Made by a program: the position numbers and the translations under genes
The notes under the pieces: generated by a model
What the model was told of the DNA's origin: nothing
Databases searched by the model: none
Seen by the model: only the letters and a program-made list of their open reading frames with translations
In this document: positions 5,996-60,135 of the stretch, piece after piece
Layout: each line of letters begins with the position of its first letter
How positions within the stretch are numbered: the stretch's first letter is position 1
Assembly: GCA_964559865.1 (NCBI GenBank)
Contig: CAZLJD010000025.1
Span: forward strand, 771 to 64,770
Length of the DNA stretch: 64,000 nucleotides
Reading direction: 5' to 3'
Origin: an uncultured Synergistota bacterium
Lineage (GTDB): Bacteria; Synergistota; JAGHAJ01

Positions 5996-6009
5996 AGGGG
6001 GGAAAAGGT

Positions 6010-9233: not shown

Positions 9234-9236
9234 ATA

Positions 9237-9635: not shown

Positions 9636-9645
9636 GTGATGTGAG

Positions 9646-10674: not shown

Positions 10675-10695
10675 TATGGTAGGAGAAGATTTTTC

Positions 10696-11487: not shown

Positions 11488-11502
11488 AATGGGGGTAGAT
11501 AA

Positions 11503-27492: not shown

Positions 27493-27533
27493 ATCTAAGT
27501 TATTATTTAGTGTATGCTTAGGAGGTGTTTTAT

Positions 27534-30547: not shown

Positions 30548-31018
30548 ATGAAGATATGTTTTACTGTAGATGACCCAAAAGGGCTTGAAAGCATAGTGAG
30601 TTACCACTTTGGCCATGCGCCGTATTATGTGATGGTGGAGTTGGATGGCAGTGATATTGTGAATGTTGTATCAATCAAAAATCCTATGGGAGGCGAACAT
30701 AATCCGGGAGATTTGCCAACCTTTATGAAGGAGAATGGTGTGGATGTGATTGTGAGTGGGGGTATGGGACCACGGGCGCAGGAGTATTTTGCCAGCCTCG
30801 GCATAAAGGCTATAGTTGGTGCGTACGGTACCGTTAAGGATGTGCTTCAGGAGTATCTAAAGGGGGAAGTAGGATACCAAACGACAAAGGTTTCAGAACA
30901 CCACCATTACTCTGAGAATGAGGAGATAGATAGATTGACTAAGGAAATTAAAGCTATAAGGGAGCAGCTGGCAGAATTAAAGGGTATTGTGAAGATGCTT
31001 GAGGAAAAAATTTCTTGA
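30548..31018 (+). CDS. NifB/NifX family Mo-Fe cluster-binding protein with His-rich linker and coiled coil
   Basis: HFGHAPY, GGMGPRA, EHHH. Confidence 0.85.
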   Translation: MKICFTVDDPKGLESIVSYHFGHAPYYVMVELDGSDIVNVVSIKNPMGGEHNPGDLPTFMKENGVDVIVSGGMGPRAQEYFASLGIKAIVGAYGTVKDVLQEYLKGEVGYQTTKVSEHHHYSENEEIDRLTKEIKAIREQLAELKGIVKMLEEKIS

Positions 31019-44444: not shown

Positions 44445-44999
44445 TTGATATACGAGGCCATAGTTACTACAAAAATGAAGGAGAGGTTTAATATAGCACC
44501 AATGGGTGTAGAGTTTACTGCCGATGGCATGGTTGTTATATCTCCTTATACTACCTCTCACACTTATGTCAATCTCTTGCGAACGGGTGTGGCAGTGGTT
44601 AATTTTGTGGATAATGTTGAGATATTTGCACATGCTGTTGTTACAGATGAAGTTTTCCCTTGGTTTCCTGCAGCTACAGTAGATGGTTGGGTTTTAGAAG
44701 ATGCGTATATGTATCTCGAAGTTGGCGTAAAGATGGCAAGATTAGGTATGGAGAGGAGTAGTTTTTTTTGTGAGGTATTTTGTGATGTTAAGAAGAGGTA
44801 TCCCCGTATGTTCAATAGAGCGCAAGCATTGGTAGTAGAGGCTGCTATTCTTATCAGTAGGTTGAGTATGTATTCGAGGGAAGATATATTGAAATTTTTT
44901 AGGGAGAATGAGAGAGTGGTGTTTAAGACGGGTAGCTTGGTGGAAAGAAGGGCGTGGAAATATCTTAAGAGATTTCTGGAGGAAGGTGAAAGGGTGTGA
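44445..44999 (+). CDS. DUF447 family protein (methanopterin-cluster associated)
   Basis: IYEAIVTT...NIAPMGV, NRAQALVVEAAILISRL. Confidence 0.82.
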   Translation: MIYEAIVTTKMKERFNIAPMGVEFTADGMVVISPYTTSHTYVNLLRTGVAVVNFVDNVEIFAHAVVTDEVFPWFPAATVDGWVLEDAYMYLEVGVKMARLGMERSSFFCEVFCDVKKRYPRMFNRAQALVVEAAILISRLSMYSREDILKFFRENERVVFKTGSLVERRAWKYLKRFLEEGERV

Positions 45000-45940
45000 G
45001 GATAATTACGCCTTCGAGACTGCATTTTGGTTTCATTGACCCTGTGGGAAAGAGCGGAAGGATCTACGGCAGTATGGGTGTTGCTTTAAAGTATCCTGCT
45101 TGGGACCTTAGGTTTTCCCGTGCCGATCGTTTTGTGGTTGATCACCGTGATGATGAGGTTCGTAGGAAGGTTTTAGAAGTAGCAGATAGAGTAAAGGAGA
45201 TTTATGATGTGGATGTTAATCTGAGAGTAGAGATTGCATCAATGATACCTTTGCATAAGGGATTTGGCGCTGGTACACAGTTATCCTTGGCAATTGGTGA
45301 AGGTATGTTGAGGATACTTGGTTTACCTTGTGAAAGAGAGGATATCGTGAAGGTTAGCGGTAGAGGAAAGAGGTCAGGGGTAGGCATAGCTTCATACTTT
45401 GATGGGGGATTTAATTTGGATGTTGGCAGAAAGAGAGATGGTGAAGGTTTGCCATTGTCGGTTTTCCACTTTGGTTTCCCGAGAGATTGGGTGTTTTTAG
45501 TAGTGTTGCCCTCCCTGGATCTGAATATACACGGAGGTGTGGAAGATTCAAAGATAGTGCAGGTTGATGGTATGGGTGTAGAGGAAATCTGTATGCTTGT
45601 TCTTATGAAGCTGATTCCCTCTTTAATAGAGAGAGATATAGCCCTTTTTGGAGAATCGGTGACATTGATTCAGAGACTGGTTGGGAGAATGTTTTCGAAG
45701 CCTCAGGGAGGGGTATTTGCGCACCCTGTATGTGAAATGCTTATAGATTTCATGCTTCAAAGCGGTGCGTTTGGTGCAGGACAGAGTTCGTGGGGGCCCG
45801 TTGTGTATGGTTTGGTTAAGAGACAGGATGCCCTTGGTTTAAAGCGGAGGGTTGAGGAGCATTTACGTGCAGAGGATATTGCCGGAGATGTCTGGGTTGT
45901 TGAGGTTGACAATTATGGAAGAAAATTGGTAGGTGAGTAG
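44996..45940 (+). CDS. mptG: Beta-ribofuranosylaminobenzene 5'-phosphate synthase (GHMP superfamily), first step of methanopterin synthesis
   Basis: TPSRLHFG, HKGFGAGTQL, GRGKRSGVG, FDGGF, GQSSWGP. Confidence 0.9.
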   Translation: MRIITPSRLHFGFIDPVGKSGRIYGSMGVALKYPAWDLRFSRADRFVVDHRDDEVRRKVLEVADRVKEIYDVDVNLRVEIASMIPLHKGFGAGTQLSLAIGEGMLRILGLPCEREDIVKVSGRGKRSGVGIASYFDGGFNLDVGRKRDGEGLPLSVFHFGFPRDWVFLVVLPSLDLNIHGGVEDSKIVQVDGMGVEEICMLVLMKLIPSLIERDIALFGESVTLIQRLVGRMFSKPQGGVFAHPVCEMLIDFMLQSGAFGAGQSSWGPVVYGLVKRQDALGLKRRVEEHLRAEDIAGDVWVVEVDNYGRKLVGE

Positions 45941-47159
45941 TATGAGGATAACAGAAGAGATTGCTAAAGATGTGATTGATAGGATGTGCCCTGTTATAGG
46001 TAGGGATATAAGTATCACCGATGACAGGGGCATTGTGGTTGGTAGTAGCGATCCACAATGGGTTGGTAAGAGTTACAAAGAGGCTATTGCTACTATCCGT
46101 GAGGGCAAGGTGGTAGAGGTTGATACTGAAGACGGTGTTGGTGGAACTAACTTCCCGATATTCCTGGATGGCAAGGTTATTGGGGTGCTATGGATAACGG
46201 GCAGAGGCAGACATATAAGGGATATAGGAAGGATCACATCGGTTACGATAGAACTACTCTTACACAGGCGATTTATAGAGACTATTGGAAGTTTAAAAAC
46301 GCATGCCATGAGTAGCTTTGTTGGAAGTCTGTTGAAAAAGGATAGCCTTGACTGGGAAGATATAGCCTCTTACTTGAGTGTATTAGGGTATGATCCTTCT
46401 TTACCCAGATTTGCTGTTGCCCTTGGGATACCTAAGTATGGGACTGTAATAGGTAGTGCTATAGGTGTTATGCAGAAGAGTGTATCTGGTGGTATGGTAA
46501 GGTATGATGTTAGGGAGAAGGTCTTATCTACCTGCAAGAAGGTTCCTCAAATTGGTGAGCAGGATATAGTGACTGACATAAGTGGAGGGTTGTTTGCTAT
46601 CTTTAAGGTTGGAAGTACATGTGACTCTGAAGAGGAGGCAGAGAATAGAAAGATAGAGTGGAGTTTTGAACTCTCTTCTGTGTTAAAAGACGAGATAAAC
46701 GAAGATGTCTTTTTGGGTATAGGTCCTTGTGCACACTCCATTTCAATGCTGAAGAAGTCCTTTAGAGAGGCAGTTCGGGCACTGGAAGTAGGTGTTCTGC
46801 TCTCTGAGTTTGCTGGGAAAAAAGTTTTCTTCTATGATGAGCCGATAGTGCTTTTGGGAAACCTTATAAGGAGTTCTGGTGGAGATGAGAGGCGCAACTT
46901 TGCTTCTCATGTGCTTGGAAATATAGACCAGAGTAGGATGAGAAAGGAGATACTGCATACATTGAAGACCTATCTCAGTTGCGGGATGAATGCTTCTTCT
47001 GCTGCCAAGAAGCTCTTCATACACAAAAACACTCTGCTGTACAGGTTGGAACGTGTAAAAAATCTTACCAGCCTCGATCCACACGATCCAATAGATGCAT
47101 TTTATCTCTGGTTGGCCCTTCAAGTGGTCTCTGTTGATGGTGTGCTCCACGCACAATAA
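45933..47159 (+). CDS. CdaR/PucR family transcriptional regulator
   Basis: N-terminal sugar-diacid-recognition-like domain, central GGDEF-like domain, C-terminal HTH AAKKLFIHKNTLLYRLERV. Confidence 0.9.
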   Translation: MSSMRITEEIAKDVIDRMCPVIGRDISITDDRGIVVGSSDPQWVGKSYKEAIATIREGKVVEVDTEDGVGGTNFPIFLDGKVIGVLWITGRGRHIRDIGRITSVTIELLLHRRFIETIGSLKTHAMSSFVGSLLKKDSLDWEDIASYLSVLGYDPSLPRFAVALGIPKYGTVIGSAIGVMQKSVSGGMVRYDVREKVLSTCKKVPQIGEQDIVTDISGGLFAIFKVGSTCDSEEEAENRKIEWSFELSSVLKDEINEDVFLGIGPCAHSISMLKKSFREAVRALEVGVLLSEFAGKKVFFYDEPIVLLGNLIRSSGGDERRNFASHVLGNIDQSRMRKEILHTLKTYLSCGMNASSAAKKLFIHKNTLLYRLERVKNLTSLDPHDPIDAFYLWLALQVVSVDGVLHAQ

Positions 47160-47217
47160 GATTTAGATATTTTTGTATTGTGGCACAATTGATTTTGTGT
47201 GCTCCTTATGTTATCCT
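47141..47217 (+). promoter_or_regulatory. Promoter with clustered TGTG/CACAA operator-like motifs
   Basis: TTGATT(47189)-17 bp-TATCCT(47212) with TGn. Palindrome ATTGTGGCACAAT at 47177-47189 abuts the -35; TGTGCTCCACGCACAA at 47141. Confidence 0.55.
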
Positions 47218-47416
47218 CTTTGTGAAAAATAGCGTAGCTCTGTCTCTCTTAGCCTTCTTGAATTTGTCTGTAGTGGCTTTATAGCTTTGATGTTATAGTT
47301 CTTTGTGTAGGGAGGTGGTATTTCGGTAATTGGTTGTGTGCACAAGTAGTATAGTGCTACTTTTGTATCGGATAGTATTATTTTGAGGTGAGGAATTCTG
47401 GAGAGAAGGAGGGGTT

Positions 47417-49198
47417 TTGATGGAGAAGGAGATAATGGCTGCTGTTATGGCAGCGACGGCGGAGCCAGATTATATGACCAATGATAGGTTGGAGGCACTG
47501 GTAAAGGGACACGGTATGTTGAATTTAGCCACCATTGCGGCTGCGAATGTTATAACGGAAGAGATCCTTAGAGGGTTGGATTATAAGCTTAGTGATGCTA
47601 GCGTTTCTGAACTTCCCGTGGAGGATATAATGAAGAAGGCAATAGCTACAGCTAAGCTTGCTGGTGCTGATGGTGCTAATGCTGCTTTGATTGTGGCTTC
47701 TTTGATGTATATAGCAGGTACAGACGCGAGGGCGGGTGTCCCTGCGGGTAATAGGAAGATAGGTGCATTGGCGAGAATGATAGCGGGTGCAGATAGGGCA
47801 GGAGTAGCTGCAATACCTACACCGAAGCTCTCAAATAGAGTGTCGGGCTTTGCTGCTGTTAAGGCGCTTTATGAGGCAATGGAGGACGGTAGGCTTACCA
47901 GTATAGTTGGTAAGAAATTGCCTCCATTCCTTGCGGGTGGAGCTATTTATGGACATAATGTTTTGGGAGAAGATATTGTATTTCCGGAAATAGCAACTAA
48001 TGGTGCAAAGATAGCAACAGAGGCCATGATGAATGCTTATAGTGGTGCAGGCTTGCTGCCAAGTCCGTTTATATCCGCAGTGTTGGGTGCTGCTGCTACA
48101 ATGGAAATAGTTCACTCTGATGGTTTTATAGATGAAAAGTTAGGTGAATTCTTTATTGATACTACTTCTTATCTTGCTGGTAAATCTGCGGCTGAGACTG
48201 CTGGTCTGCCTGAGAAGATGAAGATAAGAGGAACGGATAGGGAGTTTGATACAGCGCACCTCATAGGAGATCTTGCGCTTTTGTTTAAGGATATAGGTGC
48301 ACCTACAGTTGTAGGTATGATGTCATTTAATGAGATTATGGCTGCCTTTGATAATGCGATATTCTATGGTGCAGGTTTCTCTGGGGGTCCAGTTAACCCA
48401 CCGTTGGGTCATGTGACATGTGACGCAGTTGTGGCGATGTGCTTGCTTATAGATAATAAGGGTGATATTGAGGCAGCAGCTGAAGTTATCAGAAAGATCA
48501 AGCAAGAGCAGTGGTTTGACCCTGAGATGGCAACGATCTCAGTGAATACGGTGGCAAGGAAGACGGAGCAGATTAAGAGAGGTCTTGTAACAGATACTCT
48601 GATATTTGCAAGTGAACCTACAAGGACTGCGGGCGTTGCAAAAAGGGCAGAAAGGGCTTATCAGATGCTCAAAGAGGGCAAACCGCTTGAGGAAGTTTCC
48701 AAAACCTTCGATGCAGAGAGGCAGGCGTTCGTCGAGAAGAAGGCTTCCGAGCTCTTGAGTGCTGTTATGGGTAAGAAGATAGAGATAAAGTTCTTGAAAC
48801 TTGCTGGTGCTGCAAGGAGAAGCCACCCGTTTGTAAAGCAATATTGGGGGTTCGATTCTGATATCGATATAGAGGTTAAGATAGATGGTAAGCCTTATAA
48901 GATAGAAGGACTTTCCCACAAGGCTTCTCCAGCCATTGCCAGAGGCGAGCTTTCTGAGGATTGGGCATTACCGATAGGTATTGCGGCTGGTGTAGCTCAG
49001 GAGTTACAGTACTCTGGCCACACCATAATAAATGTAACCATACCTGCTGCAGTTGCGGCTGCTATGGGTAAACATAATTGGAAGGATGCAGGTAAGCTGG
49101 CAGAAAACGGTGCTTACATTACTGGCGCTATTCCTGGTGCAAAGGATACCGCGCGTAAAGTTGCTAAGTTAGCTGCTGAAATTATGAAGGCTATGTGA
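47417..49198 (+). CDS. Uncharacterised 593-aa Ala/Gly-rich helical protein; candidate enzyme
   Basis: Long clean ORF with AAGGAGG RBS, own promoter and terminator; no family motif that I recognise. Confidence 0.9.
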   Translation: MMEKEIMAAVMAATAEPDYMTNDRLEALVKGHGMLNLATIAAANVITEEILRGLDYKLSDASVSELPVEDIMKKAIATAKLAGADGANAALIVASLMYIAGTDARAGVPAGNRKIGALARMIAGADRAGVAAIPTPKLSNRVSGFAAVKALYEAMEDGRLTSIVGKKLPPFLAGGAIYGHNVLGEDIVFPEIATNGAKIATEAMMNAYSGAGLLPSPFISAVLGAAATMEIVHSDGFIDEKLGEFFIDTTSYLAGKSAAETAGLPEKMKIRGTDREFDTAHLIGDLALLFKDIGAPTVVGMMSFNEIMAAFDNAIFYGAGFSGGPVNPPLGHVTCDAVVAMCLLIDNKGDIEAAAEVIRKIKQEQWFDPEMATISVNTVARKTEQIKRGLVTDTLIFASEPTRTAGVAKRAERAYQMLKEGKPLEEVSKTFDAERQAFVEKKASELLSAVMGKKIEIKFLKLAGAARRSHPFVKQYWGFDSDIDIEVKIDGKPYKIEGLSHKASPAIARGELSEDWALPIGIAAGVAQELQYSGHTIINVTIPAAVAAAMGKHNWKDAGKLAENGAYITGAIPGAKDTARKVAKLAAEIMKAM

Positions 49199-49206
49199 CT
49201 ACTTTG

Positions 49207-49243
49207 CAGGTAGGGGGTGTTTTCGCTCCCTACCTGTTTGTTT
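49207..49243 (+). terminator. Intrinsic terminator / stabilising hairpin after the 593-aa gene
   Basis: CAGGTAGGGGGTG-TTTT-CGCTCCCTACCTG followed by TTTGTTT. Confidence 0.8.
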
Positions 49244-49256
49244 GGGGGATTAGTAG

Positions 49257-49754: not shown

Positions 49755-49862
49755 ATGCATGGAGGTTCGTGGTTGCTGTCGCTTTACATCTTGGAGCAGA
49801 TAGGTTTTTGGTTAGCTGTTATCTTTTTTGTTAGGAGTAGGAGGAGAAGGGAGCAAAAGTGA
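49755..49862 (+). CDS. 35-aa single-TM putative symporter accessory peptide (not in ORF track)
   Basis: MHGGSWLLSLYILEQIGFWLAVIFFVRSRRRREQK*. TGA overlaps the symporter GTG. Confidence 0.6.
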   Translation: MHGGSWLLSLYILEQIGFWLAVIFFVRSRRRREQK

Positions 49863-51223
49863 TAGCTGTTACTGTATATCTCGGTTTTCTGTCCCTTATA
49901 GGTTTATGGAGACTTAAGAAACAGCAGACATTTGAAAATTTCTTCCTTTCTACGCAGAAGCTTGGCATGCTTGAAACATCTCTCACCTTGATGTCAACTT
50001 GGGTTGATTCTGCTATAATACTGGGTTTTAGTGGCTATTGCTACATGTTTGGCTACGATACGTTGTGGATAGCTATACCAACCTCTGTCGGTGTTTACAC
50101 CTTCTCCCTGTTCTTTGCTGCGAAAGTCAACAGGATAAGAAGAGGTTTTACGATTGGTGGTGTTATAGAGGAGGCATATGGAACGGGTGTATCTGTGGTT
50201 TCATCTCTATTCACGCTGTTGTATAGCATAACGCTAGTAGCAACGAATGTAATGGCTGCAGGGTATGTAATGCAAGTTATGGTAGGTGTGCCGTTTGTCG
50301 TGGGAGCTTTCCTGATTCTTGGAGTTGCAGTATTATATACGGTGGTAGGTGGGTTTAAAAAGGTTGTGGAGACTGACATAGCGCAGTTTTTCCTCTTGAT
50401 AGTGGGGTTGGGTGTGCTACTTTTGTTTGTATTGAAAGCTGTTGGGGGATTTGGTCATATCCAGAGAATGGCCTTTCGTTACCCAACAGCGTTTTCCGTA
50501 GGTGATGTGGCATCATTCTTTATAGTATTTACTTTCCCTTTTTGGGCAAATCCATCTTTTTATCAGAGATGTAATGCAGCAAAGTCACCTGATGTAGCGG
50601 TTGTTGGGGTTGCTACCGTTGGTTTGGTGGATTCTGTGATGACATTTGTGGCTCTGATCGTTGGGATTGCTGGAGTGATAATATTGGGGAGGGATGTAAT
50701 CCCTGATGCGGTCTTTCCTGGGGTAGTAAAGGCTGTTTTGCCTTGGGGGTTGAGAGACTTTGTAGGTTTGGCAATCCTGTCTGCTATAATGTCAACTGCG
50801 GATAGCTACCTGCTCATTGCTGGAGGGGTGATTGCTCATGATATATTGAAACCCATTAAGAGAGAAGTGATTGATGAACTTGTATATACAAGGGTTGGCA
50901 TAGTGCTTTCTGCAGCTGTTGCGTTGTTTGCAGCTATGATCTTCAAAAACATATTGGATGCTGCGATGTTTGCATTTTCCCTATTTGTTTCAAGCAATCT
51001 TATCCCACTTGTAGTGGCATTCTATGTAAAAGATGCGAAGCGTTTTGTTGCACCTTCGCTTGTTAGTATGTTAGGTGGCGGCTTAACGGTTGTGTTGTGG
51101 AAGATTTTTGATTGGGGTGATGTTTCCCTTTCCGTGATGTATGGACTTTTGGTATCCGGTATCTTGTGGTTACTATTGTACGGTTACAAAAGGGTTGTAA
51201 AGGGGCGTAGGTTGTATGGATAA
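49859..51223 (+). CDS. Sodium:solute symporter (SSS family)
   Basis: About 13 TMs, YTVVGGFKKVVETDIAQ, FYQR, SAIMSTADS. Confidence 0.92.
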   Translation: MIAVTVYLGFLSLIGLWRLKKQQTFENFFLSTQKLGMLETSLTLMSTWVDSAIILGFSGYCYMFGYDTLWIAIPTSVGVYTFSLFFAAKVNRIRRGFTIGGVIEEAYGTGVSVVSSLFTLLYSITLVATNVMAAGYVMQVMVGVPFVVGAFLILGVAVLYTVVGGFKKVVETDIAQFFLLIVGLGVLLLFVLKAVGGFGHIQRMAFRYPTAFSVGDVASFFIVFTFPFWANPSFYQRCNAAKSPDVAVVGVATVGLVDSVMTFVALIVGIAGVIILGRDVIPDAVFPGVVKAVLPWGLRDFVGLAILSAIMSTADSYLLIAGGVIAHDILKPIKREVIDELVYTRVGIVLSAAVALFAAMIFKNILDAAMFAFSLFVSSNLIPLVVAFYVKDAKRFVAPSLVSMLGGGLTVVLWKIFDWGDVSLSVMYGLLVSGILWLLLYGYKRVVKGRRLYG

Positions 51224-52004
51224 GAGGGTTTTAGAAGAGTTGTTGGAGGACTTTTCTGAAGGAAAGGTCTCAAAAGAAGATGTTTTGAAGGTATTTGAGA
51301 GTCTTCCTTATATGGATTTAGGGTTTGCACGGTTGGATACACACAGGCCATTCAGACGAGGATTGGATGAAGTAGTGTTTTGTAAAGGGAAGGCAAAGGA
51401 GCATGTAAAAGGCATTGCGAAGGCACTTTCTACTTCCACTGGTAATGTGGTTTTTACGCATGTTAACGAGGATATGTTTAGGGTTATTCAAGATGAAATT
51501 CCTGACATTGTGTATTACAAGGAGGCACTGATAGCAGCCTCTGTTAGGAGAAATGTTGATAAACCGAGAAAGGGTATAACGGTGGTTACTGCAGGCACTT
51601 CGGATATTAGGGTTGCGGAGGAGGCAGCTGTCATTGCTGAGATTTTGGGCAATGAGGTTGTTAGAATATACGATGTTGGTGTTGCCGGGATACATAGATT
51701 GTTTCCACACCTTGATACCTTGAGAAATTCGAATGTGGTTGTGACTGTTGCGGGTATGGAGGGCGCTTTAGTTACTGTAGTGGCTGGATTGATATCTTCT
51801 CCTGTCATAGCTGTTCCCACGAGCGTTGGCTATGGTGCAAACTTTAATGGACTTTCTTCTCTGCTTGCAATGTTGAATGCCTGTGTACCTGGTATAGGGG
51901 TGGTTAATATAGATAATGGTTTTGGTGCTGGGGTGTTGGCTCACATGATAAACAGTCTTGCGTACAGGGGTGATAGAAATAAAGATAGCGATACCAACCG
52001 ATGA
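51216..52004 (+). CDS. larB: Nickel-pincer cofactor biosynthesis protein LarB
   Basis: RLDTHR, TAGTSD, AEEA, DVGVAGIHRL, AGMEGAL, PTSVGYG, VNIDNGFGA. Confidence 0.93.
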   Translation: MDKRVLEELLEDFSEGKVSKEDVLKVFESLPYMDLGFARLDTHRPFRRGLDEVVFCKGKAKEHVKGIAKALSTSTGNVVFTHVNEDMFRVIQDEIPDIVYYKEALIAASVRRNVDKPRKGITVVTAGTSDIRVAEEAAVIAEILGNEVVRIYDVGVAGIHRLFPHLDTLRNSNVVVTVAGMEGALVTVVAGLISSPVIAVPTSVGYGANFNGLSSLLAMLNACVPGIGVVNIDNGFGAGVLAHMINSLAYRGDRNKDSDTNR

Positions 52005-52326
52005 TGGGGAGAAGGTATGCTCCAAGATGTTTGGTATGGCTGCATTTTATCTCATTTACGAATGTGATAGTGGAAAACTAAAGCTAATTGAAAAAAAGGT
52101 CAACCCCTATGCGAAGGAGATGCCAAGAGGAAAGACCTTTTATGTAATAGAGGTGCTCCGTGATTGTGATGTCTATGTGGTTTCTAGTATAGGAGCAAGG
52201 GGGAGAAGGAGGGTTTTGGAGAAGGGGATAACTATCTATGATGTTGAAAAAGGAATAGATATAAGTATAGTGCTGAAACGTATAGAGCTGGAGCTTTGTG
52301 GTGGACATGCTGTTGGTAGGGTATAG
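51970..52326 (+). CDS. NifB/NifX family cofactor-binding protein (start approximate)
   Basis: KIAIPTDDG...FGMAAFYLIY, DCDVYVVSSIGARG. Confidence 0.78.
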   Translation: MIEIKIAIPTDDGEKVCSKMFGMAAFYLIYECDSGKLKLIEKKVNPYAKEMPRGKTFYVIEVLRDCDVYVVSSIGARGRRRVLEKGITIYDVEKGIDISIVLKRIELELCGGHAVGRV

Positions 52327-53386
52327 CGTGAGGGCTCTGGCAGAATCTGTTGTTAAATACAGCTTTAGAGATGTGGTTGCCGTTGACTTTTTTGGGGATT
52401 GGGATTTGCGACATATTGTGGATAATGTTGAGGTCGTGGAAAGCAGGGAGCATTTGTCTACTATATTGGAAAGATATGCTAAACATGATGTAATCTATTC
52501 CTCCGTGTTGGAAAACGATGTAGTACTCCTTAACCTCTTGGGGGATAGGGTCATCGGTAACGGTGCAGAGGTGGTGGAAATAGTTAGGCCTGGCGAGAAG
52601 TGGTGGAATATTGCAGGGAGACTCCGTATAAGGATACCTAATGTTTTAACTGGGATGCTACCGTGTTGTTCGGGAAGGTGGTTGAAAAAACCTTATAAGA
52701 GTGGTGGTGGAAGAAGTATCTCTTTTTGGAGTGGCGAGAAGTTACCAGCTGGTTTTTATCTTCAAGAGTTTATAGATGGGGAGAGTTTTTCGTTTTTGTT
52801 TGTGAGTAATGGTAAAGATTTGATGCTTTTGGGTGTCACCCTTCAACTTGTTGGAGTGGACTTCCTTGGGGCTCACAGGTTTGCGTGGAGTGGAAATGTG
52901 TATCCAGCTAACCTTGAGCCTGACATCGTTGATGAAGTAAAAGAGTGGATTGCAAGGCTAACTTGTGAGGTAGGGCTTTGTGGTGTGTTTGGTGTAGATG
53001 TGATCGTGAAAGATAGCATCCCTTATGTTATAGAGATAAATCCAAGGTATACCGGTAGCATGGAGCTAATAGAGACTGCGTTGGGAATCAATATCTTTGG
53101 TCTCCACATGGGAGCGTGTAGAGGAAACCTTCCTCTTAATATTCCAGAGCCTTTGGCGTATTTCGGGAAAGGGATAGTTTATGCGGAAGTAGAACTCTGT
53201 GGTTTCAGAAGTGAAGAGATGTGGAATAGGGGTTTTAGAGATATACCGGTAGGTGAAAGCGTTATCCATAAGGGAAGCCCTGTTTGTTCTGTCTTTTCTT
53301 CAGGAGGGAGCATAGGAGAGGTAATAGATGGACTTATTGAGCAGAAGAGATGGTTGTATGAGAAGGGAGTGAGAACTTGTGTATAG
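52298..53386 (+). CDS. ATP-grasp carboligase of H4MPT/methanofuran clusters (COG2232-like)
   Basis: SVRALAES, VDFFGDWDL, KPYKSGGG, QEFIDG, EINPRYTGS. Confidence 0.8.
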   Translation: MVDMLLVGYSVRALAESVVKYSFRDVVAVDFFGDWDLRHIVDNVEVVESREHLSTILERYAKHDVIYSSVLENDVVLLNLLGDRVIGNGAEVVEIVRPGEKWWNIAGRLRIRIPNVLTGMLPCCSGRWLKKPYKSGGGRSISFWSGEKLPAGFYLQEFIDGESFSFLFVSNGKDLMLLGVTLQLVGVDFLGAHRFAWSGNVYPANLEPDIVDEVKEWIARLTCEVGLCGVFGVDVIVKDSIPYVIEINPRYTGSMELIETALGINIFGLHMGACRGNLPLNIPEPLAYFGKGIVYAEVELCGFRSEEMWNRGFRDIPVGESVIHKGSPVCSVFSSGGSIGEVIDGLIEQKRWLYEKGVRTCV

Positions 53387-53753
53387 GCTGATTACTGGTA
53401 GAACTGCAAAACAAGGTGTGGCTCTTCATGTGGGTAAGACCACAAGGCAGTATCAGGAATCGGTTGCTGTTGCCTATTTTAACGAAGAGGATATGCGGAG
53501 AAATGGGATAGCCGAGGGGGGGGCTGTTTTGCTGAGAAGCAAGTTTGGTAGAGTAGTAGTCAGGGCACATAAAGGGAGTGTCCCTAAGGGGATGGTATTT
53601 ATGCCTTACGGTCCTTGGGCAAACCTTTTGACATCTGCTGATACCAATGGGATAGGAATGCCAGATTTGAAGGGTGTAGAAGTTGATGCAACTTCCTCTA
53701 ATGAAGAAATCTGGGATTGGGAACGGGTGCTGAAAGAGGTGAATAGTCAATGA
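53379..53753 (+). CDS. fwdD: Formylmethanofuran dehydrogenase subunit D (molybdopterin dinucleotide-binding)
   Basis: LITGRT..QG, VFMPYGPWAN, GMPDLKG. Confidence 0.9.
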   Translation: MYRLITGRTAKQGVALHVGKTTRQYQESVAVAYFNEEDMRRNGIAEGGAVLLRSKFGRVVVRAHKGSVPKGMVFMPYGPWANLLTSADTNGIGMPDLKGVEVDATSSNEEIWDWERVLKEVNSQ

Positions 53754-55027
53754 GGATACAAAATGTCGTTTGCCCCTTCTGTGGTTGCCTATGTGATGAT
53801 ATAGAAGTGGAAATAGAAAGCGGAAAGGTAGTTAATGTTAAAAAGGCTTGTGGAGTGGGGAGGGCATTGTTTCTTAATCACGAAGAGGACCTTGCTGAAC
53901 CTTTAATGTATGGAAGTGTCGCTTCTATAGAGGATGTTGTGACAGAGGCTGTAAGAGTGGTATCTTCTGCTAAGCATCTTCTTATATATGGGCTTAGCTC
54001 TACATCTATAGAAGCACAAAGAATGGCGATAAGATTGGCGGAATTGGTTGGTGGCAGTATAGATCAGACATCTTCTGTTTGTCACGGACCTACGACTATG
54101 GCAATTCAACAGTCTGGGATTCCTACCTGCACGCTGGGAGAGGCAAAGAACAGGGCAGATGTTGTAGTCTTTTGGGGTTCAAATCCTTTGGAGTCCCATC
54201 AGAGGCATTATGAGAGGTACTCACTGTTTGCAAAGGGTATGTTTGTGCCAGACGGTAGGAAGGGCAGAAAACTTGTAGTTATTGATGTAAGGGATACAGT
54301 TTCTTCTAAGCTGGCAAATCTGTTTGTTCGTGTAGAGTATGGGAGTGATTATGAAGTCCTTACTGCGTTGAGGATGTTGCTCAAGGGGGTAAAACCTTCA
54401 AAAGAATGTGTAGGTGGCGTTTGTATAGATGAATTACAGAAGCTGTTAGATGTGATGCTGTCGGCGAAGTATGGTGTGATATTCTTTGGCATGGGATTGA
54501 CGATGACTGGAGGGAAGTATCACAATATAGAGGCGGCCATATCTCTTGTAAGAGAGTTAAACGCTCATGCAAGGTGGTCAATAGAAGCTATGAGGGGACA
54601 TTATAATGTCAAGGGGGCTGGGAGTGTTTTGGCTTGGCAGACGGGCTTTCCCTTTGCGGTGAATTTCTCTTTGGGATACCCGAGATATATGCCGGGTGAG
54701 TTTTCTGCTGTTGATCTACTTAGGAGGAGGGAGATAGACGCTATGCTGGTTATAGCCTCTGATCCTGTTGCTACATTTCCAAGGTCTGCTGTGAAAACAA
54801 TGATGGAGATCCCACTAATATCTATAGACCCAAAGCAAAGCTTAACAACGAAGGTAGCTGATGTCGTTATACCGACGGCGCAGGTTGGAATTGCAGCGGA
54901 AGGGACGGCTTATCGTATGGATGGTGTCCCTCTGAGGCTGAAAAAGATAGTAGATTCTCCTTTTCCTTCAGACGAGGAGGTCATTTCCTCCATAATAAGA
55001 GGAGTGAAGAAGGTGAAATATCAATGA
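53750..55027 (+). CDS. fwdB: Formylmethanofuran dehydrogenase subunit B (Mo/W-pterin)
   Basis: CPFCGCLCDD...C Fe-S motif, SVCHGP, MRGHYNV. Confidence 0.93.
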   Translation: MRIQNVVCPFCGCLCDDIEVEIESGKVVNVKKACGVGRALFLNHEEDLAEPLMYGSVASIEDVVTEAVRVVSSAKHLLIYGLSSTSIEAQRMAIRLAELVGGSIDQTSSVCHGPTTMAIQQSGIPTCTLGEAKNRADVVVFWGSNPLESHQRHYERYSLFAKGMFVPDGRKGRKLVVIDVRDTVSSKLANLFVRVEYGSDYEVLTALRMLLKGVKPSKECVGGVCIDELQKLLDVMLSAKYGVIFFGMGLTMTGGKYHNIEAAISLVRELNAHARWSIEAMRGHYNVKGAGSVLAWQTGFPFAVNFSLGYPRYMPGEFSAVDLLRRREIDAMLVIASDPVATFPRSAVKTMMEIPLISIDPKQSLTTKVADVVIPTAQVGIAAEGTAYRMDGVPLRLKKIVDSPFPSDEEVISSIIRGVKKVKYQ

Positions 55028-56655
55028 GTAGATTTGTTATAAGAAATGGTAAGATTTACGATCCTGCGAATAATGTGCATGGTGATGTGAGAGACATTTT
55101 TGTTGATAATGGGAAGATTGTTGATGCTATGGATATGGATGGCGTAGAGGTTGTAGACGCAGATGGTATGATAGTAGCCCCTGGTAATGTGGAGATACAT
55201 AGCCATATAGCAGGTCCCAAGCTTACTATAGGCAGGCTCTTGAGACCAGAAGATCATATAAGAGATGTCGTAAAAAGCGAGTATCCATTGAGATCCGGCG
55301 TTGGTTTTTCTATTCCTACTACTTTTATTACTGCTTACAGATACCTTACATTGGGATATACCACACTTATGGAGGCAGCTGTTCCACCACTGGAAGCAAG
55401 ACACACCCTTGATGAGTTAGAAGACATGCCAGTAGTTGACAAAGGTATGTATATCCTTATGGGCAATAACAACATACTGTTTTCTCTACTTAAGGAGAAA
55501 GAGTATGATATGGCAAGAGACTTTGTTGGTTGGTTATTGAAGGCCACGGGTGGTTATGCTATCAAGGTGGTCAACCCAGGTGGTACAGATAGCTGGAAGT
55601 GGGGCAAGATATTTAACTCCTTGAGAGACGAAACAGTATGGGGAATAAGACCTATTGATGTCCTTAAGCTTTTGGTTGAGAGTGTGGAATACTTTCACCT
55701 TCCGCATCCTGTTCACCTTCATACATATAATCTTGGTTCCCCCGGTAGTTATAATGCAGCTTTAGATACTATCCATGCTCTTGGGGATTATTCCTTGCAT
55801 CTTACCCATTTGCAGTATTATTGCTATGGGGGTGATAGTTGGTCCACATTTAGATCTGAGGCTGAAGAAGTTGCTGCTGAATTGAGAGATCACCCTAAGA
55901 TCACTGCAGATATGGGTCAAGTTCTGTTTGAAGATACGACTACTATGACGGCAGATACGCCGTGGCAATACAAGTTACACATGCTCACTGGTAATAGATG
56001 GGTTAGCACAGATGTTGAGGTCGAGGCGGGCTCGGGTATAGTTCCTTATAGATATAAGAGGAGTAGTATAGTTAATGCGGTTCAGTGGGCTACGGGTTTG
56101 GAACTTGCTTTGATGCTTAGCCCTTGGCAGATATTTCTGACAACAGATAGCCCGAATGGTGGACCGTTTTTTATGTACCCAGAGGTTATAAGGTGGCTAA
56201 CCAGTGAGGATGCAAGACAGGATGTGATAAGCTCGCTACCTTCCTCCTTTAAGAGAAGGACTATATTGGGAGATATCCACAGAGAGTTGTCATTAGAGGA
56301 GATAATAGTCATGATGAGTTCAGGTCCTGCTAAGGCTTTAGGTCTCAAGAATAGGGGGCACCTGGGTATTGGAGCAGATGCTGACATAGCAATATACAAA
56401 GAGAGGGGTAGTGTAGCTGATACGCTGTCCCGTGTTCATATGCTGTTTAAAAGCGGGGAGTTAGTTGTGGACGATGGAAAGATAGTTTCGGGGGAACTGG
56501 TGGGCAAACTCTTTGTTGTGGATACCGGGGTAGATGATGAGGTGTTGGGTGATAAAGTGGCAAGAATGTTCGATGAGTTCTATTCCGTTAGCTTTTCTAA
56601 CTATAGGGTAGAAGATGTGTATCTCAGGAATAGGGAGGTAGTCTGCTGTGGATAG
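55024..56655 (+). CDS. fwdA: Formylmethanofuran dehydrogenase subunit A (amidohydrolase)
   Basis: IHSHIAG, KVVNPGG, HPVHLH, TTDSPNGGPF. Confidence 0.94.
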   Translation: MSRFVIRNGKIYDPANNVHGDVRDIFVDNGKIVDAMDMDGVEVVDADGMIVAPGNVEIHSHIAGPKLTIGRLLRPEDHIRDVVKSEYPLRSGVGFSIPTTFITAYRYLTLGYTTLMEAAVPPLEARHTLDELEDMPVVDKGMYILMGNNNILFSLLKEKEYDMARDFVGWLLKATGGYAIKVVNPGGTDSWKWGKIFNSLRDETVWGIRPIDVLKLLVESVEYFHLPHPVHLHTYNLGSPGSYNAALDTIHALGDYSLHLTHLQYYCYGGDSWSTFRSEAEEVAAELRDHPKITADMGQVLFEDTTTMTADTPWQYKLHMLTGNRWVSTDVEVEAGSGIVPYRYKRSSIVNAVQWATGLELALMLSPWQIFLTTDSPNGGPFFMYPEVIRWLTSEDARQDVISSLPSSFKRRTILGDIHRELSLEEIIVMMSSGPAKALGLKNRGHLGIGADADIAIYKERGSVADTLSRVHMLFKSGELVVDDGKIVSGELVGKLFVVDTGVDDEVLGDKVARMFDEFYSVSFSNYRVEDVYLRNREVVCCG

Positions 56656-57532
56656 TATGGTAACCATGGTTGAAGATACATTTGCAGAGGCATTCAAAAT
56701 GTACGGTGTTCGTCTGATAATTACGGCTATTAACAGAGAGTGGGTTATGCACGCAGCAAGGTGTGTGACAGGATTCGCTACATCGGTTATAGGTTGTGGG
56801 TGTGAAGCTGGCATAGAAGGTGATGTGGAAGACGCTCCTGATGGCAGGGTAGGAGTAAGTGTACTCATCTTTTCGATGACCAAAGACTCCCTTGAGAAAC
56901 AGCTTTTGAACAGGATAGGACAGTGCGTTTTGACATGTCCCACTGCATCCTGCTTTAATGGGCTTGACTGTGATGAGATGCTTCCTGTTGGAAAGAAGTT
57001 AAGGTACTTTGGTGACGGGTTTCAAATGAGCAAGTTTATAAATGGTAGAAGGTTCTGGAGGATCCCCATTATGGAAGGAGAGGCATTAATAGAGGAGAGT
57101 TATGGTGTGGCTGAAGCGGTAGGGGGTGGAAATATACTCATTTTGGCAGACTCTGTTGAACATGCGCTATATGCCAGTGAGAAAGCAGTTTCTTCGGCTA
57201 ATGTGGTGAAGGGTGTAATAATGCCTTTCCCGGGAGGTGTCGTGAGGAGTGGCAGTAAGGTGGGTTCTAAATATAAGTTTTTGCATGCCTCTACAAATAC
57301 TGCTTTTGTTCCTCAATTGCGAGCACACACTTCGAAGGATTTGCTGAGTGGTGTCAGATCTGTGTTGGAAATAGTCTTTGATGGATTATCTTTGGATGCT
57401 GTTAAGAAGGCTATGAGGTTGGCTATAGAGAATGCGGTTGGGTGTGAAGGTGTATTGGGGATAAGTGCAGGAAACTATGGCGGTAATCTTGGTAAGTATA
57501 GGATATATCTGAAAGAGGTTTTGGAGGTCTGA
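56648..57532 (+). CDS. ftr: Formylmethanofuran:H4MPT formyltransferase (Ftr/FhcD)
   Basis: EDTFAEAF, GCEAGIE, RIGQCVLTCPT, PFPGGVVRSGSKVGS, SAGNYGG. Confidence 0.96.
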   Translation: MDSMVTMVEDTFAEAFKMYGVRLIITAINREWVMHAARCVTGFATSVIGCGCEAGIEGDVEDAPDGRVGVSVLIFSMTKDSLEKQLLNRIGQCVLTCPTASCFNGLDCDEMLPVGKKLRYFGDGFQMSKFINGRRFWRIPIMEGEALIEESYGVAEAVGGGNILILADSVEHALYASEKAVSSANVVKGVIMPFPGGVVRSGSKVGSKYKFLHASTNTAFVPQLRAHTSKDLLSGVRSVLEIVFDGLSLDAVKKAMRLAIENAVGCEGVLGISAGNYGGNLGKYRIYLKEVLEV

Positions 57533-57536
57533 GAAG

Positions 57537-58349
57537 ATGGTTAGGTTAAAGCTAAAAGAAGAAATTAGTGTGCCTTTGGAGATCCCTGCTGCCAAACCGG
57601 ATGTGATAGTAAAGTGTTCTGGTATTTCAGAAGTAGAACGATTACCTGTATATTACGGTAACGAAACGGCCTTTTTAGGTGATTTTTTTGAGGTGACAGG
57701 GAGAGTAGAGGATGTTGTCTTTTTAGAAGGGGATCTGAAAAAGGTGAAGAGGATTGGTGAAAATATGTCCTTTGGTACTATTGAGGTGTATGGAGATGTT
57801 GGAATGCACCTCGCCAAGGGTATGCGTGGTGGTAAAGTTTTTGTGCATGGAAATGTTTCTGATTGGATGGCATCTGGTATGAGTGGTGGTATTATTAGAG
57901 TTGATGGTAATGTTGGCAACTTTGCTTGTGCATCATACTGGGGTGAGAGAAGAGGAGTAACTGGTGGAGTGGTATTTATAAATGGCTCTGTAGGTGACGA
58001 CCTTGGAAGGAGGATGAGGAGGGGCATTGTCCTTGTATCTGGTAGTGCTGGTAAGTTTGCTGGTTCTGAAGTGATTGCTGGCACGATCTTTATCATGGGT
58101 GAGGTAGGAGATGGGCTTGGGGCAGGTATGAAGAGGGGTAGTATAGTTTTGCGTCATCAACCGGAATTATTGCCTTCATTTTTGTATAGTGGTGAATTTA
58201 AGCCTTATTTCATTTCTGTTTATTTTCGTTACTTCGAAGATGTCTTTTCTTTTGAATTGTCGTCTGTGTTTGGAAAAGGCTATTTCAGGCGATATATGGG
58301 AGACTTTCTTTCTTTTGGTAAAGGAGAGATTCTTGTATGCTTAGATTGA
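57537..58349 (+). CDS. fwdC: Formylmethanofuran dehydrogenase subunit C
   Basis: GXGXXG beta-helix repeats (GXGMXGG, RRMRRG, GAGMKRG). Confidence 0.92.
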   Translation: MVRLKLKEEISVPLEIPAAKPDVIVKCSGISEVERLPVYYGNETAFLGDFFEVTGRVEDVVFLEGDLKKVKRIGENMSFGTIEVYGDVGMHLAKGMRGGKVFVHGNVSDWMASGMSGGIIRVDGNVGNFACASYWGERRGVTGGVVFINGSVGDDLGRRMRRGIVLVSGSAGKFAGSEVIAGTIFIMGEVGDGLGAGMKRGSIVLRHQPELLPSFLYSGEFKPYFISVYFRYFEDVFSFELSSVFGKGYFRRYMGDFLSFGKGEILVCLD

Positions 58350-59266
58350 ACGAAAGGGCTTGGGGTATCCTTTTAGATGTGGTTGAACATGCAGTTGATC
58401 TTCGGGTGAGGACATTTTACTCTAAAGGCGGTGCTATTTTGGTGGATGCGGGGATTGAGGCTGAAGGCTCTCTGAATGCTGGTATACTCATCTCTGAGAT
58501 GTTGCTTTCGGGTTTGGGAGATGTAAATGTCTTTTATGCGTCTGATTGGCTTAGTGTTCAGGTTTCTACAGATTTGCCTGTGGTTGCTTGTCTTGCCTCT
58601 CAGTATGCTGGGTGGAAGATCTCTTTGGGCAGTTTTTATGGCATGTGTTCCGGACCCGGTAGGCTCTTGGGGAGCAAAGAGGAGCTCTTTGATAGGTTTG
58701 GATGGTTGGAAGGTAGCACGAGGGCAGTATTGTTTATAGAGACATCTGATGTGCCTTCTCAGGAGGTAGTGGAGTATGTGTCCGATAGTTGCAAACTACA
58801 CGAGGACAGAATAGGTATAGTATTTTCGTCTTCTAATAGTCTTGTGGGTTCCATACAGGTGCCAGCGAGAGTGGTGGAGACAGGCATCCACAAGCTCATG
58901 GAGGTAGGTTATGATGTTTCAAAGATAAGATCAGCAGTGGGGTCTTCACCTATACCTCCTATAGGTGAGAGTGCTCTGGATGCTATAGGAAAATTGAATG
59001 ATGCTATCATATATGGAGGAAGGACGATATTCTATGTGGATGATGCAGACGACTTGTCAGATGTTATTAAGAAGATTCCTTCGAGTGCTTCTGCAAACTA
59101 TGGTTTACCGTTTTTGGAAATATTCGGGCGAAACAACAATGACTTTTACAGTATAGATCCCCTTTTGTTCAGCCCGGCTGAAGTCTCTATGATATCTCTT
59201 AGAACAGGTAGGCTCTACCGTGCTGGTAGAGTGAATGTTGAGATATTGGAGAACTCTTTCAGATGA
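58337..59266 (+). CDS. mch: Methenyl-H4MPT cyclohydrolase
   Basis: DAGIEAEGS, CLASQYAGW, SGPGR, NDAIIYGG, FYSIDPLLFSPA. Confidence 0.96.
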   Translation: MLRLNERAWGILLDVVEHAVDLRVRTFYSKGGAILVDAGIEAEGSLNAGILISEMLLSGLGDVNVFYASDWLSVQVSTDLPVVACLASQYAGWKISLGSFYGMCSGPGRLLGSKEELFDRFGWLEGSTRAVLFIETSDVPSQEVVEYVSDSCKLHEDRIGIVFSSSNSLVGSIQVPARVVETGIHKLMEVGYDVSKIRSAVGSSPIPPIGESALDAIGKLNDAIIYGGRTIFYVDDADDLSDVIKKIPSSASANYGLPFLEIFGRNNNDFYSIDPLLFSPAEVSMISLRTGRLYRAGRVNVEILENSFR

Positions 59267-60135
59267 GGCTTGGTATTGTGTCTACTGGTGCGGGATGGCA
59301 AGTGGAAGAGTTGAAAAGAGCTGCTGAGGATAGAGGATGGGATGTAGTTATGCTATCTCCCACAAGGTTTTCTGTTACCCTTCCTGAGATCGATCTAAGT
59401 ATTCAGGGGAGAACTGTTACTGATTGTGATGCAGTTCTTGTCCGTAGTGTGCCACTTGGCTCTTTGGAGCAGGTGGTGTTTAGGTTGGATGTGCTGTACG
59501 CATTAGAGAGTAGTGGCATTCCAGTTGTAAATAGGCCATTTACGATAGAAAGAACAGTGGACAAGTTTTACACCTCTGTGGTGCTTTCGGGTATCGGTTT
59601 GCCTACGCCGAAGACAGTGGTTGTTGAGAGACTTTCTGATGCGATGGAATACTTTGACCAGCTTGGTGGTGATGTGGTCGTCAAACCTGTTTTTGGTTCG
59701 AATGGGGTGGGGATAGTTAGAATAAGGGATAAAGATGAGGCCTACAGAGTGTTTAAGGGGTTTCAGCTTTTAAGGTATGTCTTCTACATGCAAGAGTTTG
59801 TGCCGCACGGAGATTATGATGTTAGGGTTTTTTGGGCAAATGGAGATGTGGTTTCTGCGATGAAACGCCTTTCAGGAGGGTGGAAGAATAACATACATCA
59901 AGGTGGCAAGCCCGAATACTATAGAGTGGATGACGAACTAAGAGCGGTGTGCGGCAAGATTGCAGAGGTATTCAAAGCAGATTACCTCGGTATAGACTTA
60001 TTATTTTCGGAAGATGGCAGGATGTATGTCATAGAGGTAAATGGTATCCCCGGATGGAGGGGCTTGCAGAGTATTACGGATGTGAATATAGCAGGTGAAA
60101 TATTGAGATGCATAGAGAAAAGAAAGCTTTTATAG
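59263..60135 (+). CDS. RimK-family ATP-grasp glutamate ligase (Orf5/MptN-like)
   Basis: VDKFYTS, KPVFGSNG, QEF, DVRV, EVNGIPGW. Confidence 0.88.
   Translation: MRLGIVSTGAGWQVEELKRAAEDRGWDVVMLSPTRFSVTLPEIDLSIQGRTVTDCDAVLVRSVPLGSLEQVVFRLDVLYALESSGIPVVNRPFTIERTVDKFYTSVVLSGIGLPTPKTVVVERLSDAMEYFDQLGGDVVVKPVFGSNGVGIVRIRDKDEAYRVFKGFQLLRYVFYMQEFVPHGDYDVRVFWANGDVVSAMKRLSGGWKNNIHQGGKPEYYRVDDELRAVCGKIAEVFKADYLGIDLLFSEDGRMYVIEVNGIPGWRGLQSITDVNIAGEILRCIEKRKLL

Follow-up and report, generated by a model that had tools for sequence, protein, structure and literature searches.

An orphan protein family encoded beside a LarC2-like gene in methanogens and anaerobic bacteria: a candidate user of the nickel-pincer cofactor

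Which protein makes use of the nickel-pincer cofactor in a genome region that carries genes for its biosynthesis and none for LarA? This question is raised by a stretch of 64,000 nucleotides from an uncultured Synergistota bacterium (contig CAZLJD010000025.1, positions 771 to 64,770; hereafter the window), in which genes for LarB and LarC lie in one array with genes of the tetrahydromethanopterin (H4MPT)/methanofuran pathway of one-carbon (C1) metabolism, and neither LarA nor LarE was found among the open reading frames (ORFs) scanned. The array is headed by a gene of no recognised family, whose product is here called T and which an earlier reading of the window, made from the sequence alone, had proposed as the key enzyme of the locus. 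The analysis presented here leads us to favour, with modest confidence, that T is the candidate apo-protein of a new class of nickel-pincer-cofactor enzyme, because it is a slowly evolving orphan whose gene is accompanied by that of a LarC2 domain, often also by LarB, LarC1 or LarE, in neighbourhoods where no LarA was detected.

The ORF at positions 47417 to 49198 of the forward strand was confirmed in the window. Translation probably starts at the ATG in position 47420 rather than at the listed TTG in 47417, since a GGAGG sequence (47408-47412) is located 7 nt upstream of this ATG and the homologues all open with MEKE or MQKE. Read from there, the product has 592 residues instead of the 593 given in the sequence-only reading, which was right in considering it unrecognised: no family was matched in Pfam (E <= 0.01) or in NCBIfam, and a sequence search against the Protein Data Bank (PDB) gave one chance match only (E = 1.1). 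Scattered single-member matches to unrelated families were all that appeared when 15 members spanning the diversity of the T family were compared with Pfam at E <= 10. When 1.84 billion cluster representatives were searched with a profile of the family, 230 proteins were recovered, around 15 of them full-length and the rest fragments, with no domain fusions and no more distant family. No internal duplication was detected in T, where only overlaps between adjacent segments scored. The homologues are named "hypothetical" in every source, and in the literature searched no paper was found describing the family or joining the pincer cofactor to H4MPT.

For T, a mass of 62.6 kDa and a pI of 5.9 were predicted; its composition includes 16.7% Ala, 9.0% Gly and only two Cys residues. 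No transmembrane segment was predicted (Kyte-Doolittle, 19-residue window, maximum mean 1.45). The AlphaFold2 model obtained from a 26-sequence alignment is of good confidence (mean pLDDT 83, pTM 0.87) and consists mostly of helices, with a single small sheet around residues 454-496. These results agree with the Ala/Gly-rich, helical protein lacking membrane segments that had been anticipated. When the model was compared with 350,542 PDB chains using Foldseek, nothing was found at E <= 1e-3. The top match, a designed helical barrel, was discarded (E = 0.017, TM score 0.14), as were weak matches to membrane transporters, because the hydrophobicity of every segment of T remains below the transmembrane threshold. 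The idea of a new, unannotated family is thereby extended to the structural level, in that T has no detectable known fold.

A word-indexed search retrieved 849 homologues of T, and the best 120 of the 849 are 584-605 residues long and 53-95% identical to it, with 98-100% of the query aligned. When one genome per GTDB species was scanned, T was present in 132 species, and 80 loci were kept. Archaeal hosts belong to Methanosarcina, Methanolobus, Methanococcoides, Methanomethylovorans, Methanohalobium, Methanobacterium, Methanobrevibacter and Methanocella, and methanogens make up 41 of the 42 archaeal hosts, the exception being one Thermoproteota metagenome-assembled genome (MAG). Among bacteria, the hosts are Anaerolineae, Thermoleophilia and other Actinomycetota, Synergistota, Halanaerobium, Sporomusa and Desulfobacterota, as well as the Clostridia Desulfoscipio, Gracilibacter and Syntrophaceticus. 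Identity between archaeal and bacterial groups is 45-58%. The T protein of the window is 95.4% identical to that of its closest relative, the Synergistetes MAG isolate AUK227 (L006), and it is the most conserved protein of a 22-kb syntenic stretch, the other 19 genes ranging from 65 to 93%. T is the slowest-evolving gene of the operon, which fits the suggestion that this lead gene encodes the key enzyme. In a neighbour-joining tree, the T protein of the window groups with the archaeal clade, near that of the Thermoproteota MAG AUK061 (L061) and apart from those of other Synergistota, and this grouping suggests that the gene was acquired by lateral transfer. The isolate names AUK061 and AUK227 share the AUK/PB_MBMC prefix.

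Unbiased clustering of all ORFs in the T loci made one family stand out, a small protein corresponding to the C-terminal domain of PF01969. In the window it is represented by a gene located directly after T, coding for a stand-alone LarC2-like protein (here LarC2s) that belongs with LarC2 domains according to its NCBIfam nickel_LarC2 score (67 bits, cut-off 50) and its match to the C-terminal part of PF01969. The best PDB matches of LarC2s are MK0293 of Methanopyrus kandleri (3c19, E = 7e-7) and LarC (12bi, 6bwo). It retains the invariant residues of genuine LarC2 domains (D8, G26-A27, K38-K39-G40-R41, E65, G70, K102 and E115) and forms a distinct sub-family with signature residues of its own (N29, D49 and H78). 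Of the proteins of known structure, MK0293 (3c19, 6iwj), also a stand-alone LarC2-like protein, is the best relative of LarC2s and not of T; in the literature searched it appeared only as an engineering scaffold. LarC2s evolves fast, being 67% identical in the closest relative of the window, against the 95.4% of T. A word-filtered search for the wider family with the LarC2s of the window returned only 4 matches.

The adjacency of both genes was evaluated with tblastn in loci having at least 700 bp of sequence downstream of T. Of the 72 such loci, 68 (38/39 archaeal and 30/33 bacterial) have LarC2s downstream of T, at a distance of no more than 300 bp and in the same orientation. In Gracilibacter and Sporomusa it is found upstream, within about 2 kb, and in one further locus (L048) it lies 785 bp downstream, so that the Thermoproteota MAG is the sole locus of the 72 without LarC2s near T. 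LarB and a LarC1 domain are encoded within 5 kb of T in 26/70 and 24/70 loci, respectively. The gene order is T-LarC2s-LarB-LarC in Methanosarcinales, T-LarC2s-LarB-LarC1 in Actinomycetota, which have a split LarC and, near T, no detected LarC2 domain other than LarC2s, and LarC2s-T-..-LarE-LarB-LarC1 in Sporomusa; in the cluster of Sporomusa acidovorans, T occupies the place of larA in a lar operon. No LarA (PF09861) was present in any Pfam-annotated T neighbourhood. The genomic association between T and Lar genes, previously deduced from the window, is conserved beyond it and across two domains of life, although its tightest partner had been missed, since this is the LarC2-like gene and not LarB or LarC as such. 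The window itself carries a full-length LarC in addition to the stand-alone LarC2s beside T.

In LarC, the LarC2 domain constitutes the hexameric core and CMPylates the pyridinium-bisthiocarboxylate precursor, adding cytidine monophosphate (CMP), before LarC1 inserts nickel (PMC13510736). The constancy of LarC2s beside T suggests a dedicated activation or hand-over step, perhaps involving a CMP-dinucleotide form of the cofactor. A different explanation of the same adjacency is that T takes part in the maturation of the cofactor, as a LarC1-like partner of LarC2s that would take the CMP-activated pyridinium precursor and insert the metal, or make a modified pincer, such as a dinucleotide, for another enzyme. 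The only near-universal neighbour of T is a CMP-transferase domain of the type that within LarC passes its product to LarC1 (PMC13510736), and in several loci of Actinomycetota, Desulfoscipio and Sporomusa with a split LarC the only LarC2 found in the vicinity is the one adjoining T. Yet T has no similarity to LarC (alignment of the T profile with the LarC of the window using hhalign, probability 0.1, E = 0.48), nor was a conserved Cys or a His-rich patch seen in it. Besides, the 24/70 loci in which T coexists with a genuine LarC1 indicate that T does not replace it there, a protein of 592 residues evolving far more slowly than LarB or LarC2s would be unusual as an accessory factor, and no other candidate user of the cofactor is consistently present. 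We consider a maturation role distinctly unlikely. A role of T in place of LarE was rejected: the PP-loop is missing from T, none of its Cys is conserved, and three loci (L035, L058 and L085) encode a genuine LarE alongside it.

The assignment of T as a user of the pincer cofactor can be compared with the systems already described. Two unrelated scaffolds, NphT, with the aldo-keto reductase (AKR) fold, and the NPAD-dependent ornithine cyclodeaminases, were found to be pincer-dependent by guilt-by-association in 2025-2026 (PMC13524815). With respect to the LarA superfamily (DUF2088; lactate racemase and other racemases or epimerases acting on 2-hydroxy acids), T holds the position of the cofactor user with larB, larC and larE, most clearly in Sporomusa, and has nearly invariant Lys and His residues. 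On the other hand, T is about 170 residues longer than LarA, a LarC2-like gene of its own accompanies it almost without exception, and no PF09861/IPR048068 or NCBIfam match to LarA was obtained; there was no LarA entry among the 50 Foldseek matches listed either, even though the PDB library used can be expected to contain structures of LarA. NphT resembles T in being a non-LarA protein implicated by the adjacency of Lar genes (PMC13524815), for which hydride shuttling on the pincer C4 would also be expected, and differs from it in being a TIM barrel of ~290 residues (PF00248) with proven nickel binding, whereas T gave no match to PF00248 or any other Pfam family, its model is mostly helical and its nickel binding is only predicted. 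For the ornithine cyclodeaminases, which as cited there (Desguin 2025, in PMC13524815) show that a third scaffold and a dinucleotide variant of the pincer have a precedent, the fold shared with mu-crystallin (PF02423) is absent from T, and the use of a dinucleotide by T would be deduced from LarC2s only. As for the LarC1 domain, T is comparable in being encoded beside a CMP-transferase domain whose product it could receive, and is distinguished by the lack of homology and of a His-rich nickel patch, and by its coexistence with LarC1 mentioned above. The family and fold of T would thus be new, and its reaction too, while the cofactor system into which it appears to plug is already known.

Members of the families just compared are also encoded in some T loci. 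In Methanolobus vulcani, the genes just upstream of T-LarC2s-LarB-LarC (locus L001, 7979-9886) include those for an aldo-keto reductase carrying a ferredoxin-type domain and for a flavodoxin-like protein, a context to which a protein cluster upstream of T in the Methanosarcina loci (cluster 37) corresponds. This reductase could be a second user of the pincer cofactor in the T cluster, since AKRs beside Lar genes are the family of NphT. A Synergistales-like contig (locus L088, 4101-9764) has, upstream of T, genes for LarB, a LarC1-only protein, a LarE-like PP-loop protein also matching PF01969 and a protein of the ornithine cyclodeaminase family, the latter at 5 kb from T, which may be of the NPAD-dependent kind; genes of the glycine-reductase type (GrdX, GRDB) are found there too.

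Alignment of the family revealed the nearly invariant residues K113 (in a PAGNRK motif), K136, K290 (in a KD[VI]GAP motif), H179 and H232, many conserved Arg, and invariant Gly, Pro, Arg, Lys, His, Asp and Glu positions in loops. The five Lys and His residues are of the types that tether or ligate the cofactor in LarA and NphT, with which a pincer-binding role for them would be consistent. A K29-G-H31 sequence considered as a cofactor motif was discarded because divergent members do not conserve it. The loops modelled with least confidence (23-29, 180-185, 236-246, 321-330 and 473-477) belong to the best-conserved segments and are in or beside invariant motifs, as expected for loops that become ordered around a ligand or cofactor. 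This pattern bears on the proposal that T might not be an enzyme at all but might store nickel or the cofactor or serve them as a scaffold, chaperone or regulator, an idea that finds some basis in the absence of a recognisable catalytic motif, the largely helical structure and the weak Foldseek resemblance to helical bundles. The many invariant loop positions and the extreme conservation of T in comparison with its neighbours argue in the opposite direction, and the His- or Cys-rich features of metal storage were not seen in the protein, making this explanation highly improbable.

Several observations weigh against T as a user of the nickel-pincer cofactor. LarE is encoded within 10 kb of T in only 3/70 loci, LarB and LarC1 are near it in about a third, and in Methanobacteriales the loci show T-LarC2s only. 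The constant neighbour is LarC2s and not the full pathway, so T could equally act in biosynthesis, on a CMP-activated precursor. In addition, the most divergent member of the family (P0135) lacks K113, K136 and H179.

The second aspect of the locus is its connection with C1 metabolism. In the window, T is followed by LarC2s, the symporter, LarB, a NifX-like protein, an ATP-grasp ligase, FwdD, FwdB, FwdA, Ftr and FwdC, and then by Mch, a RimK-type ligase, a CitG-like protein, LarC, an Mtd-like dehydrogenase and an ADP-ribosylglycohydrolase, all co-directional (Table 1); a LarC-domain gene and a transporter immediately after T had been correctly read. Most of the junctions from the symporter onward overlap or are a few bases apart, by which the Lar genes can be regarded as interleaved with C1 genes in a single array. 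Elsewhere, an Mtd-like gene comes after T-LarC2s in 16 of the 30 bacterial loci, and is followed by genes for ATP-grasp (16/30), FwdB (16/30), FwdA (15/30), Ftr (12/30) and Mch (5/30, this gene often being beyond the end of the contig). The Thermoproteota MAG, the archaeal host that is not a methanogen, has an Mtd-like gene directly after T. The link with H4MPT/methanofuran genes that had been drawn from this one array is therefore found again in roughly half of the loci from bacteria. No gene for Fae or Mer appeared in those T loci that were annotated, and T consequently sits where an enzyme making or consuming methylene-H4MPT would be expected. This is the operon position, upstream of Mtd/Mch/Ftr/Fwd, of Fae and Fae-Hps, through which formaldehyde enters the H4MPT pathway. 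The analogy is functional only: Fae has no sequence relation to T and needs no metal cofactor. Nor did T match any Pfam or NCBIfam family of Fae, Mer, Mtd or Hmd, the H4MPT-linked C1 enzymes already known; LarA and Fae signatures had been described as lacking from it.

Taken to its extreme, this context would suggest that T works in the H4MPT/methanofuran pathway, or in the biosynthesis of its cofactors, without nickel, the Lar genes being neighbours for another reason. T hosts are H4MPT organisms, and in the window and in loci of Anaerolineales, Desulfoscipio and Thermoleophilia T is found among C1 and H4MPT biosynthesis genes (beta-RFAP synthase, DUF447, a DUF6513/pterin-binding protein, HPPK/GCYH and PTPS). 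However, the adjacency of LarC2s persists in methanogens, whose H4MPT genes lie elsewhere, and T was present among the matches in only some of the named methanogen genera and species, unlike what would be expected of an essential biosynthetic step. Besides, in Sporomusa and Halanaerobium T is accompanied by Lar or sugar genes, with no H4MPT gene within 10 kb. A nickel-free role of this kind seems very unlikely to us.

Four bacterial loci count against a general C1 role of T. No H4MPT gene is present within 10 kb in the loci of Halanaerobium, Sporomusa, Acetomicrobium and Desulfovibrionaceae. In Halanaerobium, T-LarC2s ends an operon in which genes for a LevR-like regulator, EIIA/B/C components of a phosphotransferase system (PTS; GAT family), a class II aldolase and HPr are directly upstream, while in Sporomusa T is surrounded by genes for a GntR/FCD regulator, a transporter of the major facilitator superfamily (MFS), an enolase-superfamily (MR_MLE) enzyme and a Diacid_rec fragment. 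The existence of T homologues in sugar-acid or PTS sugar operons without nearby H4MPT genes means that coupling to C1 metabolism is not the only reading of the pincer-enzyme proposal. Along with the CdaR-type regulator and the symporter of the window, they suggest that the substrates are organic acids or derive from sugars. The regulator (91% identical to its homologue in locus L004) and the symporter adjoin T in the lineage of the window only.

These contexts would also suit a nickel-pincer epimerase, isomerase or hydride shuttle acting on a sugar, sugar acid or 2-hydroxy acid, for which the H4MPT neighbourhood would be incidental or lineage-specific. The sugar-diacid type of the window regulator, the solute symporter and the Sporomusa and Halanaerobium genes are in line with it, and the known pincer enzymes work on hydroxy acids and sugars. 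Against it, the identity between domains (about 50-55%) suggests one common substrate, and the contexts point to different ones; T is placed directly before Mtd-Fwd-Ftr-Mch genes in the 16/30 bacterial loci indicated above; and methanogens, not known as sugar fermenters, are nearly all of the archaeal hosts. Such a role appears unlikely. Within the pincer-enzyme reading, we find the chances of an H4MPT-coupled function evenly balanced.

In the scheme that we infer for the window, LarB and LarC, with LarE encoded elsewhere, would produce the pyridinium-bisthiocarboxylate nickel pincer, and LarC2s, having kept the core with which the CMP-transferase domain of LarC binds nucleotides, would activate it or pass it to T, possibly as a cytidine dinucleotide. 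T would then use the pincer C4 as a bound hydride acceptor and donor; by this hydride transfer, an organic compound brought into the cell would yield a C1 unit at the level of formaldehyde or methylene-H4MPT, which the Mtd-like, Mch, Ftr and Fwd proteins of the operon would oxidise. This role in C1 delivery is proposed because T heads a packed operon of LarB, LarC and H4MPT/methanofuran enzymes, behind a CdaR-type regulator and beside a symporter. The most ambitious version of the scheme, in which T and LarC2s constitute a nickel-pincer enzyme of new fold that brings pincer hydride chemistry into methanogen-type C1 metabolism, is decidedly speculative and we regard it as doubtful. It could take the form, for example, of a "borrowing-hydrogen" or transient oxidation in which H4MPT would receive, with no corrinoid involved, a C1 unit taken from an alcohol or from a substrate derived from sugar, or of a formaldehyde-releasing lyase whose product would be oxidised by the adjacent Mtd/Mch/Ftr/Fwd; the cofactor might in this case be a cytidine-dinucleotide form made by LarC2s.

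With regard to the expression of T, the 260-bp gap upstream of the gene had been described as an operator-rich promoter, a description that could not be confirmed: it contains one perfect TTGTGNNCACAA palindrome (47334-47345), an element resembling it at about 47177-47187 (read by eye) and a direct repeat of 8-9 nt, the frequency of the palindrome motif in the window is not above chance, and a search of the gap for a promoter of sigma-70 consensus type gave none. A ribosome-binding site was recognised in the GGAGG sequence mentioned above, and T is followed by a strong terminator-like hairpin, in agreement with the terminator of its own that had been described. The hairpin (49206-49237) begins eight bases 3' of the stop codon, has 14 bp with 8 G-C pairs and a folding energy of -28.3 kcal/mol (z = -4.7 with respect to shuffled sequences), and is followed by the T-rich tail TTTGTTTGG.

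Table 1. Location of T and of the surrounding features in the window.
Feature	Position	Strand	Basis
DUF447 protein and beta-RFAP synthase (H4MPT biosynthesis)	44445..45940	+	PF04289/PF20766; TIGR00144 155 bits
CdaR/PucR-type regulator (sugar-diacid recognition, GGDEF-like and PucR helix-turn-helix domains)	45933..47159	+	PF05651, PF17853, PF13556; NCBIfam CdaR family
Intergenic leader, 260 bp, with ribosome-binding site GGAGG (47408-47412) and short palindromes	47160..47419	+	sequence, repeat search
T, soluble Ala/Gly-rich protein, orphan family	47420..49198	+	sequence, family searches, model
Intrinsic-terminator-like hairpin and T-rich tail, between T and LarC2s	49206..49246	+	fold energy vs shuffles
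LarC2s, stand-alone LarC2-like protein (cytidine triphosphate-binding domain of nickel cyclometallase), 162 aa	49257..49745	+	PF01969 positions 247-371; nickel_LarC2
Sodium:solute symporter family transporter	49859..51223	+	PF00474
LarB (pincer cofactor biosynthesis, carboxylase/hydrolase)	51216..52004	+	NCBIfam LarB equivalog 275 bits
NifX/NifB-C-like small protein	51958..52326	+	PF02579
ATP-grasp ligase, weak MfnD-like match	52298..53386	+	PF02655; NCBIfam MfnD 44 bits, below cut-off
FwdD, FwdB, FwdA, Ftr, FwdC homologues (formyl-methanofuran dehydrogenase/formyltransferase)	53379..58349	+	PF01568, PF00384, PF07969, PF01913/PF02741, PF01493
Mch (methenyl-H4MPT cyclohydrolase), RimK-type ATP-grasp, CitG-like	58337..60965	+	PF02289, PF08443, PF01874
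CitG-like triphosphoribosyl-transferase gene, near the end of the C1/Lar array	60108-60965	+	PF01874
Full-length LarC, LarC1 and LarC2 domains, 390 aa	60981..62153	+	PF01969 positions 1-375, E = 7e-142
MtdA/B/C-like methylene-H4MPT dehydrogenase	62173..63066	+	PF09176 Mpt_N and NAD-binding domain
ADP-ribosylglycohydrolase-family gene, ends the C1/Lar array	63067-63966	co-directional	

Other genes of the window and of the T loci were also recorded. The FwdB homologue (53750-55027) opens with a Cys-rich motif, CPFCGCLC, and a Mod-type ATP-binding cassette (ABC) transporter with TOBE domains (PF13531, PF00528, PF00005/PF03459) is encoded at 27525-30158. This motif, together with the FwdD homologue and the Mod-type transporter, is a hint that the formyl-methanofuran dehydrogenase is redox-active and not of the hydrolytic Fhc type. 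Just after the transporter genes there is a second PF02579 NifX/NifB-C-like protein (30548-31018); proteins grouped with the NifX-like one by sequence resemblance (cluster 11) are near T in 10 loci, for example in Methanobacterium, often with Mrp/NBP35-type ATPases. In an Anaerolineales locus (L086, 6352-9482) and a Thermoleophilia locus (L087, 14010-18192), T is beside genes for DUF2193, a flavin mononucleotide (FMN) reductase and a PF02441 flavoprotein. The Thermoleophilia block adds DUF2180 and a channel of the MIP family, and the Anaerolineales one has an unannotated 71-aa ORF at the matching spot. The lar operon of L. plantarum includes an aquaglyceroporin, LarD. DUF2193 is described as a [4Fe-4S] protein (PMC12375889), and in methanogens it reportedly adjoins a MIP channel in 91% of cases. 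At the other end of the window, a flagellar and chemotaxis block (90-13092; FlhA, FlhF, MinD-like, PilZ, CheB, CheA, CheC, CheD, a sigma factor and FapA) is unrelated to T.

Many prokaryotes make the nickel-pincer cofactor without having LarA, and the T family provides a clonable candidate for its user, present in methanogens such as Methanosarcina, Methanolobus, Methanobacterium, Methanobrevibacter and Methanocella as well as in many uncultured anaerobes. In bacteria, T heads an H4MPT/methanofuran C1 operon that lacks an annotated entry enzyme. If the proposal holds true, it would add a new class of nickel enzymes and a new protein fold, and possibly a new way for carbon to enter or leave C1 metabolism of the methanogen type, which would matter for the methane cycle and for hydride transfer in biocatalysis.

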